Shown here: positions 4,328-59,425 of the stretch, piece after piece | How the letters are laid out: the number at the start of each line of letters is the position of its first letter | Numbering within the stretch: the first letter of the stretch is position 1 | Source of the DNA: an uncultured virus (IMG/VR IMGVR_UViG_3300009500_000012) | Lineage: Duplodnaviria > Heunggongvirae > Uroviricota > Caudoviricetes | Virus record (IMG/VR): IMGVR_UViG_3300009500_000012 | Length of the DNA stretch: 64,000 nt | Strand: one strand, 5' to 3' | Made by a program: the position numbers and the translations under genes | The notes under the pieces: model-generated | What the model saw: only the letters and a program-made list of their open reading frames with translations | Told to the model about the DNA's origin: nothing | Database searches by the model: none

Positions 4328-6679
4328 TTACCATTGACGGGCTCTAAATAAACCACTTGTTGGTAATTTCTGATATTTAGTGAAGTTACTTGCTGTTTTT
4401 GCATAAAATGCGGTTCTTACAGCATCAATAACATGGTCTGGAGAAACAGTTCCTTTAGAATAAACAATTTGTCCACCGCTACCAGTAGAATATGTATGAT
4501 TTCTAAATTGATTTTCAATTGAGTCATCAAATTCTAAACCTGGCATTTGTAATAAGTTTCTTTCAGCATGGTAAATAATCATATTTGTCATTGCTTCTTT
4601 TGCTGGAGCAGTAACTTCTTTTCCATTAATTTTATCAACTACAAGTCTTCCACCAAATGGAATTGGAATCAATCTTTTATCAAAATTATGTAGAGCAAAT
4701 TTATTCCATCCTGTGCGTTTAGACATAAGAATTTGAGCAACAGCAGTACCATTACTTCCGGCATCCATTCCGAGCATTTTAAATTGATAATAATTATCTA
4801 ATAAAGCTATTAAATCTGCTTGAATATCATATGTAACATGTTCCATATGAATTCGCAAAACCATCTTCATAATTCCATTCCATTCTTCAAAAACAACGAA
4901 TTCTGAAGGGTCGGCAGAATAACCTAAATCAGCGCCAAACCAATATTTACATCCTGGATGCTTAGAAGGAAATCTTCTATTTAACCAACCGCTTAAATCA
5001 TTACCAATAGCATGAAGACTTTCTGGAGTAAGATTTAATAAACGATATTCTGGAGATTCTTTATTATCATTTTTGTATTTATAAGCAAATACTTTTTCAA
5101 AGACCAACCAGTTGAATACACCCATGTCAACAGTCCCCCAATCTGCCATGATTTCATGTTCATATTGGGTTGTATTTAATTCGGCTTTAAAAGAACGGTC
5201 TTGAATTTCATCATATTTTGGGTTTTCCCATGATGCAAACCAAAATTCTTTATAACCCCATTCTGGGTCTGTACAATTTGCAACTCCTATAAAATTAGCA
5301 ACATAGGAATGGTCATTTTCAACTTCAAGATTATATACCGATAAACTTTTTATTTCAAATTCATTGTTAGTAATAGGAAGATAAATGAATTTATCATCTA
5401 CATGACCAAAATTAATTGCTAAATCATCAAACTTACTTAAATTATAACATTGTTTTAAATTTAAAGGTATAGCAAGGAAATCTCCTGGATAAAGTTCTTC
5501 AATAGGATAATATTGTGCCTCTGGCTTTTGTACTCCATCATGTAAAGATGGAAGCAAACATTCGTTGGATGGATTCCATAACATTTGTTCACAATAATTA
5601 CAAAAGTGATTTTCTTTTTTTACTGCCATTACTCTGTGATTTGGAGTTGCTTTTATTGGCACTTCTGAGCCCATATACCATACAGAATGCATATTTCCGG
5701 TATATGGACGGTTCATTATCTTAGTGACCCTTGCAGGCTCTGCAAAGCGGTTAAAAACAACATCGTCAACTTCTATGTCTTCAATATTTTTTATAGTTCC
5801 ATCTGATAATAAAATAGGAGTGTCATTTTCAAAACATGCTTTAAAAAAGTGTGCGCGTCTTCCAGATGGTGTGGAAGATAATACTGTTAAGGCTTCATCA
5901 CCAGCATTGATTTCAGTTGCTTTTTCAGCAGCGAAGAATGATGCTGGCATATAATCTGCTTCGTCATATAATTTATAATCAAAAGTTTTAGAACGTGCTG
6001 CCTGTCCATTTGCACCAGGTCCTCTAAATACAAGAGTTGCAGGTTGACTCCAACCATCAACATGAAATTCAATTTGTGGGAATGGATTTTTTTTAACTAC
6101 AATAATTCCTTGGTCCATTGCCATACAATATTCAGGGCATTCATTCAAAAATTTCATTACGCGGTCAAAGACTGTTTTTGCTTTATCAGCATCCGCAGAA
6201 GCCAAAATAATATTAGCTCCGCGTGTGTATTGTTTTTCCCGAATTACAATGCCTTTAGGATTTTCCGGTGTAATTTTAGATTTATCTCTTACCGGAAATT
6301 TCTTTTTATATTTAATAGGTTTAACTAAAGCAAGATATAACGCGCCAAGAGCAAGAACCTCAGTTTTCCCAGATTGTCTTCCAATACGCCAAGCAAATCT
6401 TTTAATTGGTAAACCACGAAAAGCCTTGATAGGGTAATTTTTTGGATAAGTATATAATTTATCAAAACATCCAAGCAATAAAACTTGATAAAATGCTTTT
6501 GGTGACCATTTAAATTTATTTTGAGCCCAATATAAAGCATAAGAACTTCTGGCAAGTGCATAATCTCTATGTAATTGCTCTGTTCTTGTTATAATTTCTT
6601 CTTCAAAAACTTCATTTTCAGCCTTTTTTATTGCTGATTCATCAAGTAATTTACCTAAAACATTTATTGTTTCGCTCAT
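4328..6679 (-). CDS. terL: terminase large subunit containing a mini-intein
   Basis: Walker A GRQSGKT, Walker B YDEAD, SSTPSG coupling motif, RNase H-like GADLG / GMDAGSNG / DHVIDA. Confidence 0.9.
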   Translation of the reverse strand: MSETINVLGKLLDESAIKKAENEVFEEEIITRTEQLHRDYALARSSYALYWAQNKFKWSPKAFYQVLLLGCFDKLYTYPKNYPIKAFRGLPIKRFAWRIGRQSGKTEVLALGALYLALVKPIKYKKKFPVRDKSKITPENPKGIVIREKQYTRGANIILASADADKAKTVFDRVMKFLNECPEYCMAMDQGIIVVKKNPFPQIEFHVDGWSQPATLVFRGPGANGQAARSKTFDYKLYDEADYMPASFFAAEKATEINAGDEALTVLSSTPSGRRAHFFKACFENDTPILLSDGTIKNIEDIEVDDVVFNRFAEPARVTKIMNRPYTGNMHSVWYMGSEVPIKATPNHRVMAVKKENHFCNYCEQMLWNPSNECLLPSLHDGVQKPEAQYYPIEELYPGDFLAIPLNLKQCYNLSKFDDLAINFGHVDDKFIYLPITNNEFEIKSLSVYNLEVENDHSYVANFIGVANCTDPEWGYKEFWFASWENPKYDEIQDRSFKAELNTTQYEHEIMADWGTVDMGVFNWLVFEKVFAYKYKNDNKESPEYRLLNLTPESLHAIGNDLSGWLNRRFPSKHPGCKYWFGADLGYSADPSEFVVFEEWNGIMKMVLRIHMEHVTYDIQADLIALLDNYYQFKMLGMDAGSNGTAVAQILMSKRTGWNKFALHNFDKRLIPIPFGGRLVVDKINGKEVTAPAKEAMTNMIIYHAERNLLQMPGLEFDDSIENQFRNHTYSTGSGGQIVYSKGTVSPDHVIDAVRTAFYAKTASNFTKYQKLPTSGLFRARQW
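5276..5836 (-). mobile_element. mini-intein (187 aa, no homing endonuclease)
   Basis: block A CFENDTPILLSDG, block B ATPNH, end VYNLEVENDHSYVANFIGVAN followed by Cys+1. Confidence 0.9.
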
Positions 6680-15211: not shown

Positions 15212-15751
15212 TTAAACTCCTAAGTGTTTACAAACGGTATCCAAAATCTCTTGAGGAGAAAGATTGTCTGTATTCACAAACAAATTTGGTTCTTCTTTTA
15301 AAGAATATTTGCTGGAATCATAAAAAGCACGTTCTGGCATTTGAAAAGGAACTTTATTTCCTTTTTCATCAATTGTCCAGCGGTCAGACCTCATAAGTTC
15401 GCGATTTTTCCAAGTATCATAACTACAAGCAAGTCTAATAACCTGAGAAGAATACTTAGAACGAAATTCCTCTACCATCTTGCGAAAATCTTCAGACATA
15501 CCAGTAGAATTAGCAATAACTTTACGACCCGCAGAAAGTTCATTTTCTACGCGCCTACGTAAGGTTGCAAAAGTATCAAAGAATTTACCATCACGACCAA
15601 TTCCTTTTGATTTTCCTCCTGGTTGACCACTTAATTCAGTACGAATGGCATCAGAAGAAAAAACCTTACAACCAAGTTTTATGGCTAAGGCATCGCAAAG
15701 AGTGTCTTTTCCTGAAGAAACATTACCTACAACTACTAAAAGTTCGTTCAT
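15212..15751 (-). CDS. P-loop kinase (AAA_33 / polynucleotide kinase-like)
   Basis: VVGNVSSGKDT Walker A, SSDAIR, R...R lid. Confidence 0.75.
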   Translation of the reverse strand: MNELLVVVGNVSSGKDTLCDALAIKLGCKVFSSDAIRTELSGQPGGKSKGIGRDGKFFDTFATLRRRVENELSAGRKVIANSTGMSEDFRKMVEEFRSKYSSQVIRLACSYDTWKNRELMRSDRWTIDEKGNKVPFQMPERAFYDSSKYSLKEEPNLFVNTDNLSPQEILDTVCKHLGV

Positions 15752-22763: not shown

Positions 22764-23423
22764 ATGACTAGTAAAAAAATTAAATTTGTTGAAGATAGTT
22801 CTTTATTTCCTCCAGGTTTCTTTTTATTAAAGAAGTTTATAAACGAAGAAAAGTGTAAAGAAATCGTAGAAATCATTGATACACAGATAACAAAGGTTAC
22901 ACCATTCGACATATATAGTATGTATAATGGTAAGACGTTTAATTGTTTTATGACAAATTGTGGAGAATATGGATGGATAAGTGATGGTGCCAATGGTTAT
23001 AGTTACAGAAAAGAAAATCTAAAAGGTATAAAATGGCTACCAATGCCTGAATTATTTAAAAGAATATCTTTAGATGCTTTAAAAGAAACAATAAAAATTA
23101 TACCCGAAGGTTATGAACCTCAATCTTGTTTAATTAATTTGTATCCACCAGGAAATAGTGGGAAATTAGGTTCTCACGTTGATAATACAGAATTTTGTTC
23201 TATGCCAATTATTTCTTTTTCTATTGGTGCTTCTGCGGTATTTAAAGTAGAAAATATTGGAAATATATTGTTAGAAGAAGGGGATGTATGTATAATGAGT
23301 GGAGAATCAAGATTTGTACGACATTCAATAACAAAGATATTAGATTTTAAAAAACCAAGAATAGCATTAACAATACGTCAAGTATATAATGGAGTACCCG
23401 TTTCATATAGACATATGAAATAA
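22764..23423 (+). CDS. alkB: AlkB-family 2OG-Fe(II) dioxygenase
   Basis: MTNCGEYGW, CLINLY, HVD, IISFSIG, distal H, RIALTIR. Confidence 0.9.
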   Translation: MTSKKIKFVEDSSLFPPGFFLLKKFINEEKCKEIVEIIDTQITKVTPFDIYSMYNGKTFNCFMTNCGEYGWISDGANGYSYRKENLKGIKWLPMPELFKRISLDALKETIKIIPEGYEPQSCLINLYPPGNSGKLGSHVDNTEFCSMPIISFSIGASAVFKVENIGNILLEEGDVCIMSGESRFVRHSITKILDFKKPRIALTIRQVYNGVPVSYRHMK

Positions 23424-25447: not shown

Positions 25448-26584
25448 ATGGCAGAATTTAAAGTAATAGCAGATAAAATAAGATTATTTCCACACCCAGG
25501 AGCAGATAAATTACTTCTTGGTAAGGTTGGTCCATTTCAAGTAGTTGTTGGTAAAGACAATGATTACAAAGAGGGAGACATTGTAATTTTTGCTCCTGAA
25601 CGTAGTATTCTTCCTGATGAAATTAAAGGAGACTATTGTAATACAGAAACTGGTGTTTCTTATTTGAGCGGTCCTGATTCTAACCGTGTTAAACGTGTAC
25701 GCTTACGTGGAGAATACTCTGATGGTGTCACGCTTAATAGAGATTGGGTTGTAGAAAAACTTGGTCTTCCTGTACTTGAAGATATTGCTTTAAATTATGA
25801 TTATTCAGAAGCATTAGGAATAAAAAAATACGAACCACCTATTCCATTTAATATGAGTGGACAACTTGAACGTATTGAAGATGTTTCTTTTGCGGTCAAT
25901 CATGATGTTGAACAATTTCGTCTTTATGTTGATGAATTCATTGATGGTGAACCTGTAATTGCAACCGAAAAAATTCACGGTTCTCAAGTAAACATTCAAC
26001 GTACAAGTAAAGGACGTTGGTATGTTACTTCCAAAGGTATTGGTAAAAATGGTCTTGCTATTCAAGAATCAGAAGGCAATCTTTATTGGCAAGCATTAAA
26101 TAATTCTGGTTTGAGAGAATTACTTGATGAATCACTAGGAACAGATGAAAAGAACCAAGAATATCAATTCTTTGGTGAAGTTTTTCCATGTCAAAAAGGT
26201 TATAATTACGGACAAGATAAGGCTACACTAAGATTATTTAGATTGAGAATTGACGGAAGAGAAATCCCTTTTTATGAAGTAAAGACAACTTCTAAAATAT
26301 TAAACGATGAAAATGCTTCTTTCCATGAAACATCAAACATATTTGGTAAATTTTGGGAGAAAATAATTGAACTTTGGGTTCCAGTCATTTATATGGGTCC
26401 ATTTAATGTAGAAAAATTAGTTGAAGCATCAAAAGGTTTAGAACAAGTTTCTGGTAAACAATTACACATACGCGAAGGCGTTGTTGTCTCGCCACAAGAT
26501 ACTCGTAGAAGTAAAGAAGGATTTCCTTTACTTTTAAAAATAATTAATCCTAAATACAAAGATACTGATGAAAGTTTCTCATAA
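25448..26584 (+). CDS. RNA ligase, DRB0094/Rnl5 family
   Basis: N-terminal OB HPGADKL, motif I TEKIHG, FFGE, REGVV, KIINP. Confidence 0.88.
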   Translation: MAEFKVIADKIRLFPHPGADKLLLGKVGPFQVVVGKDNDYKEGDIVIFAPERSILPDEIKGDYCNTETGVSYLSGPDSNRVKRVRLRGEYSDGVTLNRDWVVEKLGLPVLEDIALNYDYSEALGIKKYEPPIPFNMSGQLERIEDVSFAVNHDVEQFRLYVDEFIDGEPVIATEKIHGSQVNIQRTSKGRWYVTSKGIGKNGLAIQESEGNLYWQALNNSGLRELLDESLGTDEKNQEYQFFGEVFPCQKGYNYGQDKATLRLFRLRIDGREIPFYEVKTTSKILNDENASFHETSNIFGKFWEKIIELWVPVIYMGPFNVEKLVEASKGLEQVSGKQLHIREGVVVSPQDTRRSKEGFPLLLKIINPKYKDTDESFS

Positions 26585-56439: not shown

Positions 56440-56557
56440 TGGTGGAAATAGAAGGATTCGAACCTTCATATAGTTGACACAAGTATCGCGAATACCTGGT
56501 GAGAAGAGACTAGTATTCTCTGTCAACCTGTTTTAATACCACTTAAACTATATTTCC
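56440..56557 (-). ncRNA. tRNA-like RNA (118 nt, CCA encoded) with branched two-hairpin domain instead of an anticodon loop
   Basis: GGAAATA/TATTTCC, D arm GTTT..AAAC, GGTTGACA/TGTCAACT, GAAGG-TTCGAAT-CCTTC, ACCA. Confidence 0.85.
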
Positions 56558-56906
56558 CATAAAGAGGGCATCATGTCCTTTCCCCTCAGTCTTGCATTGA
56601 AATACAACCCGGTAAGATTGCCCTCGCGTTTCTTGCGGTCATGGGGCGTCTTATCTTAGTAGCAAGTCTTAAAAATTTGGGGCAATCCGGTAACGCCAAG
56701 AGGTTGCAACCCCTTTTTGCTTCCCATACGTAGCACATACGATTCGGGTTCCTCACAAGCCGCATTGCCATGCCTTGTGAGTCCTGCCTGCCCTGGTTTG
56801 TCCGAGAGCCGTAAGAATTCTTGAATGGACAGGAATCATTCAAGTTGAGTTACGCAGAGGACCAGGATGTAAGGACTTCCGTTTCATGAACCGGCTAGAA
56901 CCTTAC
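56558..56906 (-). ncRNA. putative large structured ncRNA (~350 nt)
   Basis: promoter 56913-56941; stems GTAAGG/CCTTAC, CTTGAATG/CATTCAAG, CTCACAAG/CTTGTGAG, GATTGCCC/GGGCAATC. Confidence 0.65.
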
Positions 56907-56944
56907 AAACTCATTATACTATTTGAATTTAGTTTTGTCAATTT

Positions 56945-57119
56945 AGATAATCGCCTCGGTGGAGGTTAGGCTCCTCCAATATCCCTTAACTCTCGCCATG
57001 TTTTTCCTTGCGGAACCCATCTGCTTCAAACGAGCGCAGGCTGATAGACTTCGGTTGTCTATCTTAGGGCCTCTTTATTTTATTATCCGATACTACCGAA
57101 TTTATTCCGGCGACCATCT
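56945..57119 (-). ncRNA. putative 175-nt ncRNA closed by 11-bp terminal stem
   Basis: promoter 57126-57154; AGATGGTCGCC/GGCGATTATCT; internal hairpins. Confidence 0.7.
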
Positions 57120-57213
57120 AAAACTATTATGCCATTTTCATTTAGTTTTGTCAAGTACGGTTCCAACAGTAGGCGTGGAGAAAAAGTAGACGCCTAGTTT
57201 TACTATGATACGC

Positions 57214-57396
57214 TAGGGCATACAGGGCTCGAACCTATATTTCCCGATGTTCCCCCAAGCACAAACCGCCAAGTCTGAGCCACCTAATCATTCTCTTGCT
57301 TACTTTTTCGTAGTTGGCGCTAGGAATTTCAGCATGGATTGATTCAGATTCAAGGGGTACTAGTCAAGGCGTTTTGTCCATTTAAACGAATGCCCC
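57214..57396 (-). ncRNA. tRNA-like RNA (183 nt) with ~100 nt insertion in anticodon arm
   Basis: GGGGCAT/ATGCCCT, D arm GTTT-AAATGGACA-AAAC, ATAGG-TTCGAGC-CCTGT. Confidence 0.75.
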
Positions 57397-57631
57397 ATTC
57401 CCGTATCACGCCCATTGGACTGATTACTACACCTTCTGTAGTTTGATTTGAGAAGGTTTTCCTACTTCTCACCGGGTCGAGACATGTCCCGGAGGCTAGT
57501 TGTAGCGTCCCATTTAAGGGATACCAATGAACTCGAAGCACCGTGGGAGTATCTCATTGGCTGTCAGCAACGTCGTCTTGGGTGCTACCTGCTTCTCGGT
57601 TATTTTGTGACCAAGCGTTTCCGCTCACCAC
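57397..57631 (-). ncRNA. putative multi-hairpin ncRNA (~235 nt)
   Basis: promoter 57638-57666; GAGCG-GAAA-CGCTT, CCAATGA/TCATTGG, CCGGG/CCCGG, TGAGAAG/CTTCTCA, ACTACA/TGTAGT. Confidence 0.6.
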
Positions 57632-57752
57632 ATTTATATCTTATACTATTTGGAGAGTTTTGTCAAATCCTTTTTGTTTAATTCAAAAAAGAATCTCCTG
57701 CCATGACGCCATGAAACTTTATGACTCTTGCAGGAGCAATAATTGAAACGCT

Positions 57753-58037: not shown

Positions 58038-58232
58038 AAGTAGTGTATCAATCTCTTACAGTTATTGCAAACAACAACAACAACAACATTCTATTTATTA
58101 TATACAGCAGAACAGGAAACCAAGCGTATACTCTTGGCTCCCTATCTGTGTAGTAGTCCTCATGGAGTGAGCGACTTGCATTTAGTATACCAAAGAGGAG
58201 CAGTTTTGTCAAGAACTGCCCCTCCCTGTATT

Positions 58233-59204
58233 CTAGACCTCTACGAGGTACTTGAGGACTTCATCCTTCAAGGGTTCATCAAAGGTGCGGATATACTTGC
58301 GTTCGAGCGCACCGTTCGGGTTGTCCTTGGTTTGGTTAGTAGCCCGGTCATGGTCGAGGTAATCAACCGTGGCATTCCAGAGGCCGTAGGCGGTATCACG
58401 CACGTTCGCGATATCGGCAGCATTGAGCGCCTTATTGAACAGGTTACGACCCTTTTCAATTTCGGTTTCCTTGCGCTTACCAATCGACATTTCGGGAAGA
58501 GGAAGGAGGATTTGGTCACGAACGAATTCGATTTCCTTCGTGGTGACAGGCTTCTTGAGAAGGCCATTCATCACATCTTCAAACTTCGTGAAGTAATCTC
58601 CCGAGATTTTCAGAACGTCACGGGCCGCAAGAACCAGAGTGTTGGTATCCATTTGGTTCCCGATATGCTTGACACGGAAGGTATTCTTTGCACCTTGCAA
58701 GGCAGCAGTAAGGGTATTTTGGCAAACCACCCGAACCGGAGTAATCACGCAGATAAAGGAACCTTTGCCGTCGTGATGATTCAGAAGCAGGATGTAACGA
58801 GAGATTTCATCCCCGGCAATTTTAGTGATGTTAGGAAGGCGCATCAGAATCCATACGCGCTGCCCATTATCGAACGTGCCCGCCGTTTCAAAGAGGGACT
58901 CGTTCTGGATGCCCGTAATCGCCTCTGCGAGATTAAAGGCTTCTTCATTCTGAAGAGGTTTGTAGCGTTTCGTAACCGTACCGAGGATACGCTTCTCATC
59001 CATACGCACGACATTGAATGCGCCGTGATTCGGGATGAATTCTTCGCCGACTTTGGCATAAGAAGGATGGAGTTCTACAGTCCAATCAAGGCCACCAAGA
59101 ACGCGGGCTTGAAGGGCGTTTAAGTCATGGTCGGGCACAACGCCAAGACCATGCCACGGGGTTTCACGAACGGAGACGATGGAAGTGATATTTCCAGCCG
59201 ACAT
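58233..59204 (-). CDS. DUF932/DUF945 phage/plasmid-like protein
   Basis: PWHGLG, YKPLQNEEAF, ETAG, NHHDGKGS, VRVVCQNTL, AYGLWNA. Confidence 0.85.
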   Translation of the reverse strand: MSAGNITSIVSVRETPWHGLGVVPDHDLNALQARVLGGLDWTVELHPSYAKVGEEFIPNHGAFNVVRMDEKRILGTVTKRYKPLQNEEAFNLAEAITGIQNESLFETAGTFDNGQRVWILMRLPNITKIAGDEISRYILLLNHHDGKGSFICVITPVRVVCQNTLTAALQGAKNTFRVKHIGNQMDTNTLVLAARDVLKISGDYFTKFEDVMNGLLKKPVTTKEIEFVRDQILLPLPEMSIGKRKETEIEKGRNLFNKALNAADIANVRDTAYGLWNATVDYLDHDRATNQTKDNPNGALERKYIRTFDEPLKDEVLKYLVEV

Positions 59205-59425
59205 ACTTTGTTCTTTATTCCTTTCAGGAGTTGGGGAGAACAAAATGATAGTACCAACTTCTGGTAGATAATGCAAGTGCCAATTTTTAGAGTGGTCCTA
59301 TTTATTATAAGACTGAACAGGTTTTCAAGGATTTTACTCCTCGAAAACCTCAGACTCATCTACTCCATGATACATGAAGTAAACAAGCGTACTACAAACC
59401 AGAATCCACAACAAAGTCATCATGA

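Follow-up and report, generated by a model that had tools for sequence, protein, structure and literature searches.

A tRNA-Gln-derived gene of an uncultured tailed phage carries an extra RNA domain that appears to be under selection

The 64,000-nucleotide stretch of DNA analyzed here (the window) is part of the uncultured phage record IMGVR_UViG_3300009500_000012 of IMG/VR. It contains a gene-free block (about 56440-57670, read from the minus strand) that holds a transfer RNA (tRNA)-shaped gene of 183 nucleotides (nt), E2, together with a sister element, E1, and three promoter-like sites. Judged from sequence comparison, E2 is a real tRNA-like gene that was derived from a tRNA-Gln gene and has an extra domain of 125 nt whose fold appears to be selected. 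E2 probably resembles a tRNA without functioning as one, and in the reading that we prefer, at a probability of about 0.5, E2 would specify a non-decoding RNA in which a tRNA shell serves for processing and presents a structured domain maintained by selection.

Positions within E2 are counted from its 5' end, position i corresponding to window coordinate 57397-i, and its tRNA frame consists of the following parts (bp, base pairs):

57214..57396, minus strand: E2, the 183-nt tRNA-shaped gene (ARAGORN intron-mode call and reading of the sequence)
57390..57396, minus strand: 5' strand of the acceptor stem, GGGGCAU (positions 1-7), pairing with 57215-57221
57371..57387, minus strand: D arm GUUU-AAAUGGACA-AAAC, with a 4-bp stem and with G18 and G19 (fold and ARAGORN)
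57222..57242, minus strand: variable loop AAAU and T arm AUAGG-UUCGAGC-CCUGU, with a 5-bp stem (sequence and ARAGORN)
57214..57221, minus strand: 3' strand of the acceptor stem, AUGCCCU (positions 176-182), and the discriminator A, followed by GCG

The acceptor stem has 7 bp, of which the first is G1.U72 and the third G3-C70, and the bases that make tertiary contacts in tRNAs are complete (U8, A14, A15/U48, G18, G19, A21, G53-C61 and U54-U55-C56-G57-A58). Because all of the contact bases of the elbow are in place, the L-shaped elbow of a tRNA can form in E2. The GCG behind the discriminator means that CCA is not encoded, and the insert is closed by C40-U44 against G141-G145. A first-pass annotation, made from the letters alone, had pointed to the acceptor GGGGCAT/ATGCCCT (57396-57390 with 57221-57215), to a GTTT/AAAC D stem common to E2 and the element at 56.5 kb (E1), to a T arm, to an insertion bounded by CCCC/GGGG and to the absence of an encoded CCA; all of these we recovered, the insertion being closed as CCCC/GGGGG.

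Run in intron mode (inserts of 1-300 nt) at default stringency, ARAGORN draws E2 as a tRNA interrupted by 109 nt behind position 37 (37/38) and labels it tRNA-Thr(agt). The resulting cloverleaf of 74 nt has the loop CUAGUA-A and one surplus base between the D and anticodon stems (the program itself reports 77 bases, counting one extra base at the 5' side and two at the 3' side). The same mode yields five calls in the whole record of 130,281 nt, i.e., E1, E2 and three at ordinary tRNA loci, and none in 40 dinucleotide-preserving shuffles of that record; the tRNA frame of E2 is more than chance. ARAGORN without introns misses E2, and the covariance-model check that the first-pass annotation had proposed returned no Rfam family at an E value of 10 or below for E2 (251 nt searched), the tRNA (RF00005), transfer-messenger RNA (tmRNA), group I intron and ribozyme models included. 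The uninterrupted 5-bp anticodon stem with a 7-nt loop of a canonical tRNA (RF00005) is not found in E2.

Several comparisons show the body of E2 to descend from a tRNA-Gln(CUG) gene. Among the genome representatives of 185,579 species, a 20-mer from its T arm and acceptor stem matched five places, three of which (four genes) are tRNA-Gln(ctg) of Lactobacillaceae. The 3' part of E2 agrees with those genes at 26 of 29 positions, 24 of them consecutive (the last 24 nt are identical), and its 5' GGGCAUUCG is identical to Lactobacillaceae tRNA-Gln. When a panel of 18 tRNAs was compared, tRNA-Gln genes scored highest for the 3' part and the tRNA-Gln of Ligilactobacillus scored highest for the inner hairpin. 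What appears to be the old anticodon arm is also still visible:

57338..57354, minus strand: relic tRNA-Gln anticodon arm (positions 43-59, CUUGA-AUCUGAA-UCAAU, anticodon CUG), 13/17 identity

This arm has a 4-bp stem plus one C.U mismatch and a 7-nt loop with U33, the anticodon CUG and A37. When the central 131 nt were shuffled 20,000 times, 22 of the shuffles equalled its match to the Ligilactobacillus tRNA-Gln anticodon arm, and 159 contained an arm of any Gln type. Positions 1-27, 43-59 and 154/155-183 together make a tRNA-Gln of canonical length, and the extra pieces (28-42 and 60-153) flank the anticodon arm precisely, one at each foot, and are paired with one another. Because the tRNA-Gln-derived parts add up in this way, with the extra pieces at the feet of the arm, the Thr(agt) label of ARAGORN is probably a by-product, its anticodon stem being the base of a stalk. 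The motif CCUUGA is present twice (28-33 and 42-47), 14 nt apart, as would be left by a partial duplication.

With the tRNA frame fixed, the minimum free energy (MFE) structure predicted for the extra domain is a stalk that bears a long arm and a second hairpin, with pair probabilities of 0.9-1.0:

57355..57369, minus strand: 5' strand of the stalk (positions 28-42), including the ARAGORN 'anticodon stem-loop' CUUGA-CUAGUA (MFE)
57243..57256, minus strand: 3' strand of the stalk (positions 141-154, GGGGGAACAUCGGG), pairing with 57353-57368 (MFE)
57282..57349, minus strand: long arm of the insert (positions 48-115; MFE, pair probabilities 0.98-1.0)
57258..57281, minus strand: second hairpin of the insert (positions 116-139; MFE, pair probability 0.997 for 121-134)

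The stalk amounts to about 12 bp (29-33/150-154, 37-38/147-148 and 40-44/141-145), and the relic anticodon arm is raised on it. The relic loop is predicted to pair with positions 110-115 inside the long arm, at pair probabilities of 0.98-1.0, so that the accessible anticodon of a tRNA-Gln is not found; the relic hairpin has a pair probability of 0.0 in the ensemble, and a conformer that contains it is 5.9 kcal/mol worse than the predicted fold. A search for antisense targets of the insert within the phage gave only chance-level matches of at most 14 nt.

Support for this fold comes from a diverged homologue in the DNA sequencing run X5, in which a 9.4-kb contig bears the block within otherwise different flanks. 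Its differences from the window fall as follows:

E1: 6 other letters in 121 (95% conserved)
57248..57601: 36 other letters and 6 gaps
57180..57247 (T arm, 3' acceptor strand and trailer of E2): replaced by 69 letters, with no alignment at 80%

For positions 20-116 of E2, 22 substitutions and 2 indels are displayed, and we mapped these on the MFE structure as predicted from the window alone. Three pairs are changed on both sides such that pairing is kept, and all three are in the long arm (56-108, CG to GC; 64-99, GC to AU; 65-98, CG to UA). At least three compensatory pairs were obtained in 146 of 20,000 random placements (permutation p = 0.007), and sliding the partners by 1-3 columns gave counts of 0, 1, 0, 0, 0 and 1. 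The three compensatory changes in one diverged homologue support the view that the insert is a real structured domain. The stretch that contains the second hairpin (57248-57280) has at most three differences.

The decoding parts, as either drawing would have them, have fared differently. Displayed differences affect 7 of 20 positions in the tRNA part (20-39) vs. 15 of 77 in the insert (40-116). The change U35>G abolishes the would-be U33 of the ARAGORN loop; U31>G and A33>G alter the base of the stalk, i.e., two bases of the ARAGORN anticodon stem; C56>G breaks the stem of the relic arm, whose CUG is interrupted by an additional U; and A23>G converts the D-stem pair U13-A23 to U.G. The homologue retains the insert and changes the exons, and no insert-less relative was found in pattern scans or by blastn. 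The distribution of the changes is evidence that selection acts on the inserted fold rather than on the parts needed for decoding.

The surroundings of E2 suggest a transcription unit of its own, with the following elements:

57638..57666, minus strand: promoter P1 (TTGACA, 17 nt, TAAGAT; 10/12 in a consensus scan), the predicted driver of the leader and E2
57397..57630, minus strand: non-coding leader of about 235 nt between P1 and E2 (no Rfam match)
57170..57196, minus strand: trailer hairpin UAGGCGU / 13-nt loop / ACGCCUA, 18 nt behind E2 (read from the sequence)
57154-57126, minus strand: promoter-like site P2 (promoter scan)
56941-56913, minus strand: promoter-like site P3 (promoter scan)

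The P1 region is retained in X5 with two differing letters in 53 nt (57614-57666), and some 11 unlisted differences in 57378-57570 correspond to a leader divergence of roughly 6%. The only open reading frame (ORF) of the leader, 57350-57541, has acquired four indels of 1-2 nt in X5 (at 57354, 57391, 57398 and 57433), which sum to one extra base and break the frame. Because small indels break the only ORFs in X5 and the substitutions follow no codon pattern (by hand count, only 4 of 12 are at third positions of the one long frame), we regard E2 as non-coding. The promoter and terminator scan did not score the trailer hairpin (57170-57196) as a terminator.

Parts of the block are contained in two metatranscriptome runs. 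An RNA contig of run X3 (57193-57379) spans E2 from the D loop onward, takes in the entire insert without a joint and reaches 21 nt beyond the 3' end, and its end at 57193 falls within the trailer hairpin; a second RNA contig covers 56695-57104. Run X3 gave no cover over 57380-57630, E1 or the flanking genes, from which, these being contigs, we draw no conclusion about processing. These contigs show that unspliced E2 sequence is present in an RNA library, and no more than that. Downstream of P2 is a third non-coding unit (56945-57120, minus strand), and the RNA contigs of both metatranscriptome runs end at 57104, about 15 nt downstream of the expected P2 start; the X3 contig end at 57104 directly abuts Illumina adapter sequence, and with contigs alone no processing is inferred from it. 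One RNA contig continues through P3 to 56695.

Under the preferred reading, transcription from P1 would produce an RNA of about 420 nt with E2 as its 3' module. The intact shell (acceptor, D arm, T arm and elbow) would allow host ribonuclease P (RNase P) to remove the leader, and 3' trimming and CCA addition would complete the 3' end, leaving a stable RNA of about 186 nt in which the insert would be retained. The stalk of about 12 bp that takes the place of the anticodon arm would carry the long arm and the second hairpin as the working part, and the old CUG loop, buried in the long arm, could not decode even if freed, since the stalk would hold it about 12 bp too distant from the acceptor end. 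During infection the extra domain would presumably bind a protein, the ribosome or another RNA, and selection would preserve its pairing while the features of the anticodon drift. The first-pass annotation had described E2 as a tRNA mimic with an anticodon-arm domain of about 100 nt: the tRNA shape and a domain of about 110 nt are borne out, the word 'mimic' describes the preferred reading only, and the canonical intron site 37/38, the tRNA-Gln(CUG) ancestry and the relic anticodon hairpin had been overlooked.

A number of observations weigh against a non-decoding RNA that keeps its insert. The insert is placed exactly at the classical intron site 37/38, and the phage has genes that make cut-and-rejoin splicing possible, namely (from a domain scan):

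Window 25448-26584, plus strand: RNA ligase with an OB domain
L009 2354-2752, minus strand: protein with a cREC_REC cyclic-phosphate-processing domain
Window 15212-15751, minus strand: AAA_33 kinase-like protein

These RNA-repair enzymes would allow cutting and rejoining, but they are no evidence for splicing. X5 is the only diverged homologue, known as a table of differences to the window that omits those within about 31-33 nt of the ends of aligned pieces as well as 11 further ones, and its 3' tRNA part, from position 149 onward, is outside the alignment, so that conservation of the tRNA shape itself cannot be stated. Of the one-sided changes in X5, one retains a pair and five break MFE pairs; by hand, three of the five broken pairs could perhaps be re-paired (C61-G103 and A62-U102 after G102>U and A103>G, and U51-A113 after G113>A together with the inserted U). 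The folding energy is no better than that of shuffled sequences, either for the 183 nt (MFE z = -0.29, with 77 of 200 shuffles folding as well) or for the insert alone (z = -1.02). Finally, RNA ends, strand and rare spliced forms are invisible in the RNA contigs, the library may contain DNA, and the 21 nt by which the X3 contig reaches beyond the 3' end of E2 are unlike a trimmed mature RNA.

If the insert is instead removed, E2 would be a working tRNA with a non-self-splicing intron of the 'enigmatic' kind described in Lak megaphages, an explanation that is the main rival and, on the present evidence, rather unlikely. An endonuclease encoded by the host or the phage would make a cut on either side of the stalk and the phage RNA ligase would rejoin the ends, with the cREC and kinase proteins healing them if needed, to give a tRNA-Thr(AGU) as drawn by ARAGORN. 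This would account for the position of the 109-nt insert, exactly after 37, and for a 74-nt cloverleaf with the loop CUAGUAA, and by ARAGORN the sister E1 is likewise a tRNA-Thr(UGU), with a 40-nt insert. The inserts of Lak tRNAs, as given in the accessible text of PMC6784885, range from 23 to 141 nt, several of them starting from position 37-39, that of a tRNA-Thr(TGT) included; RNA ligase, cREC_REC and AAA_33 are enzyme classes that heal and seal cut tRNAs (PMC7824862, in part), and a conserved insert structure could serve as a recognition signal. On the other side, the body of E2 is Gln-like and not Thr-like, the homologue has a G for the would-be U33 and two altered anticodon-stem bases, and its tRNA part diverges faster than the insert. 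There is an extra base between the D and anticodon stems, a bulge-helix-bulge could not be drawn by hand, and no spliced joint was seen in the RNA contigs and no insert-less allele in pattern scans and blastn. No splicing endonuclease domain was found by Pfam among the 161 ORFs scanned (at least 70 amino acids in the window and 100 elsewhere), and RNA-repair genes are frequent in large phages for other reasons, according to the part of PMC7824862 that deals with them. It is improbable, too, that E2 is a decaying tRNA-Gln pseudogene, left by a duplication or insertion and transcribed merely because it is behind a conserved leader that is itself the functional RNA. The fast divergence of the tRNA part (7 of the 20 displayed positions), a 3' tRNA part in X5 that cannot be aligned while the leader differs by only about 6%, the two copies of CCUUGA 14 nt apart, resembling a partial duplication, the buried relic anticodon and the rejection of E2 by the Rfam tRNA model would all be expected of such a relic. 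Nevertheless, this view is hard to square with the compensatory changes, because neutral decay does not predict that pairing of the long arm is preserved, and with an elbow that is intact: the copy in the window has all of the tertiary-contact bases, seven acceptor pairs and a T loop, and the sister E1, with a comparable stalk and two hairpins, has kept 95% of its letters in X5.

tRNA genes are the integration sites of many temperate phages, which carry the 3' part of the tRNA, and the 24 nt that E2 has in common with the 3' ends of bacterial tRNA-Gln could be read as an attachment site (attP) through which the phage would integrate into a tRNA-Gln gene of its host, the remaining tRNA shape being incidental. 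We consider this highly improbable: the 5' acceptor strand and the D arm, which an attP does not need, are also present, E2 is within a promoter-driven non-coding block found in RNA contigs, and no integrase domain was detected among the 161 scanned ORFs of a record that is an estimated 78% complete, so that an integrase could sit in the missing part. Least credible, and already contradicted, are a tmRNA in miniature or in two pieces and a tRNA interrupted by either a degenerate group I intron or a self-cleaving ribozyme. The topology is that of tmRNA (SsrA), whose 5' and 3' ends pair as an acceptor stem next to a T arm and in which a large domain replaces the anticodon arm, and at a stringency of 80% ARAGORN outlines a 'permuted tmRNA' built on the T arm of E2. 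At default stringency it draws none, however, and Rfam gave no tmRNA, Intron_gpI or ribozyme match at an E value of 10 or below, whether 251 nt or 3 kb are searched. E2 has G3-C70 in place of the G3-U70 pair that marks alanine identity, a D stem, about half the size of tmRNA, no tag frame and no codon pattern in the X5 substitutions, and the first-pass annotation was therefore right to set it apart from tmRNA on account of its size, its D stem and the absence of G3-U70. It had also held the insert to be too short for a group I intron, with which we agree: at 109 nt, the insert has A at -1 and C at omega (A39 and C148 at the ARAGORN junctions) rather than U and G.

Three further possibilities were tried by hand or eye and rejected. 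For an intron of the archaeal or eukaryal type, the 3-4-3 bulge-helix-bulge cannot be drawn, CUAG opposite GAAC forming one of four pairs; for excision by RNase P and RNase Z acting on a nested tRNA-like fold, hand-drawn cuts leave a loop of 9 nt or of 3 nt; and for a hammerhead, the core motifs are absent by eye and Rfam is silent.

The sister element is in the same block and has the following place and properties:

56440..56557, minus strand: E1, a tRNA frame with a two-hairpin insert of 40-47 nt and an encoded CCA (Rfam and ARAGORN)

With the Rfam tRNA model E1 reaches 44.9 bits, 47 nt of its anticodon loop counting as an insertion, and ARAGORN in intron mode reads it as tRNA-Thr(tgt) with a 40-nt insert. 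A stalk of 7-8 bp (GGUUGAC/GUCAACU) bears its two hairpins, and in X5 a G.U pair within the second hairpin has become A-U through G62>A. One might speculate, at odds that we put well short of even, that E2 and E1 represent a class of 'stalked' phage tRNAs in which the core is complete and the anticodon arm is lifted on a stalk and masked by an added arm. Such RNAs could be caged forms of tRNA-Gln or tRNA-Thr that are freed by a nuclease and the phage RNA ligase through cutting and rejoining, which would amount to protein-catalysed splicing of tRNA in a bacterial virus, or they could be tRNA-shaped carriers that, during infection, bring a selected RNA domain to machinery that binds tRNA, for instance RNase P, the CCA-adding enzyme, a synthetase, EF-Tu or the ribosome. 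The leader of E1 (350 nt; 56558-56906, minus strand) also looks structured: in a hairpin at 56751-56781 all five X5 changes are in the loop and none in the stem, no X5 change is listed for 56850-56887, and an ORF of 85 amino acids is interrupted by small indels in X5. When the three leader RNAs of the block were compared, their similarity was not above that of shuffles.

Relatives of E2 are scarce. Searches by blastn with the 1.3-kb block and with E2 alone against 50,697 GenBank phages returned none, and neither did exact and degenerate pattern scans of viral, metagenome and genome contigs, in which the sole metagenome match shares only the 20-mer with the window and is otherwise dissimilar. 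Protein searches with the DUF932 and terminase genes led to no related loci. Five loci share a neighbouring gene of 119 amino acids and are without the block; 79 matches to the tRNA model in these loci have no large insert, save one weak match of 100 nt. Parts of E1 are matched at 80-99% identity by 91 phage records, among them 56 from Klebsiella phages. One is that of Klebsiella phage Marfa (MN044033.1), where a tRNA-like stretch lacking annotation (about 90 nt, L020 659-746) is situated between tRNA-Leu and tRNA-Thr; it agrees with the 3'-terminal 44 nt of E1 at 87% identity and has the same AGUUGC/GCAACU stem, and just upstream (L020 356-480) ARAGORN in intron mode draws a 125-nt 'tRNA-Pro + 40-nt insert'.

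E2 can be said to share a general theme with several known phage RNAs. In the accessible text of Devoto et al. 2019 (PMC6784885), tRNAs of Lak megaphages have possible introns of 23-141 nt, several from position 37-39, that are unclassifiable by Rfam and called 'enigmatic'; the insert of one of these, a tRNA-Thr(TGT), itself looks tRNA-like, and the inserts are deemed introns because alleles with and without them exist. E2 is like them in that the anticodon loop of a phage tRNA frame is interrupted by an insert that fits no Rfam class and whose 109 nt are within the range given there. Unlike them, E2 has a body that resembles tRNA-Gln, a relic anticodon arm inside the insert and a homologue in which the anticodon loop is not kept. 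Among the papers listed by a search for later literature on megaphage and phage tRNA introns, none deals with such inserts beyond the 2019 Lak report.

Phage T4 has two stable tRNA-linked RNAs, rnaC (species 1, 139 nt) and rnaD (species 2, 119 nt), whose function is given as unknown in the part of PMC9697503 that treats them. They are located directly behind tRNA-Arg, and rnaC, whose termini are paired and whose 3' end forms a T arm, is in this respect, as a non-coding phage RNA, similar to E2. There is no sequence similarity between them and E2 by blastn over the 50,697 phage records, and E2 differs in having its own promoter, a 235-nt leader, a full D arm and all elbow contacts. Group I introns in bacterial tRNAs, such as that in cyanobacterial tRNA-Leu(UAA), are found by the intron mode of ARAGORN according to the accessible part of a preprint (Williams 2020); they too are inserted in the anticodon loop of a tRNA gene, and the insert of E2 differs from them in its length, in the lack of a catalytic core by Rfam and in lacking U(-1) and G(omega).

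GOLLD and ROOL are large phage non-coding RNAs that are often near tRNA islands, and tRNAs are sometimes covalently part of the GOLLD linker (PMC12286853, in part), whereas in E2 the tRNA-like unit itself is expanded. Between 55500 and 58500 there is no GOLLD (RF02032) or ROOL match at an E value of 10 or below, the positive control being a GOLLD RNA at L002 7469-7857 (161 bits). The latter is in a related viral contig, 2.2 kb downstream of a homologue of the 119-amino-acid gene that flanks E1, and is followed by a tRNA-Lys. Among bacterial RNAs, YrlA and Y RNAs with a tRNA-like module are non-decoding tRNA mimics whose tRNA-like part is used by tRNA enzymes, although the ends of YrlA lie in the Ro-binding stem and not, as in E2, in an acceptor stem; Rfam gave no YrlA hit on E2.

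The record from which the window is taken (G001) comprises 130,281 nt, has a completeness estimate of 78% and belongs to a tailed phage, as a tail sheath, a portal and a terminase are present. The many perfect sigma-70 promoters (TTGACA-17-TATAAT) point to a bacterial host, and the sequencing runs that contain the phage carry the label moss metagenome. Outside the block, 58065-59276 is richer in G+C and has long ORFs on both strands, of which that on the minus strand encodes a DUF932 protein (E = 3e-47) and that on the plus strand is probably spurious. The large terminase gene (4328-6679, minus strand; 783 amino acids) has weak Hint and intein-splicing matches below the Pfam cut-offs and may possibly hold an intein. 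At L009 3500-4900 (G001 113.5-114.9 kb) there is a tRNA cluster with an inserted ORF that has an HNH-like motif by eye and no Pfam match; three of its five Rfam tRNA hits are missed by ARAGORN at default settings. Two AlkB-like 2OG-Fe(II) oxygenases are found alongside RNA-repair-type genes (the coordinates of this set include window 22764-23423, plus strand, and L009 14885-15442, minus strand).

To our knowledge, the tRNA-linked stable RNAs of T4 have remained without a known function for fifty years. To such RNAs E2 adds a case in which an ancestry in tRNA-Gln is clear, with the old anticodon arm still visible, and in which there is evidence of selection on the inserted fold, together with a promoter of its own and a leader that is conserved. 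Should the insert be retained, grafting of domains into the shell of a tRNA would be a way in which phages build new stable RNAs; should it be removed, an undescribed, protein-based route of tRNA splicing would exist in bacteria or in their viruses.

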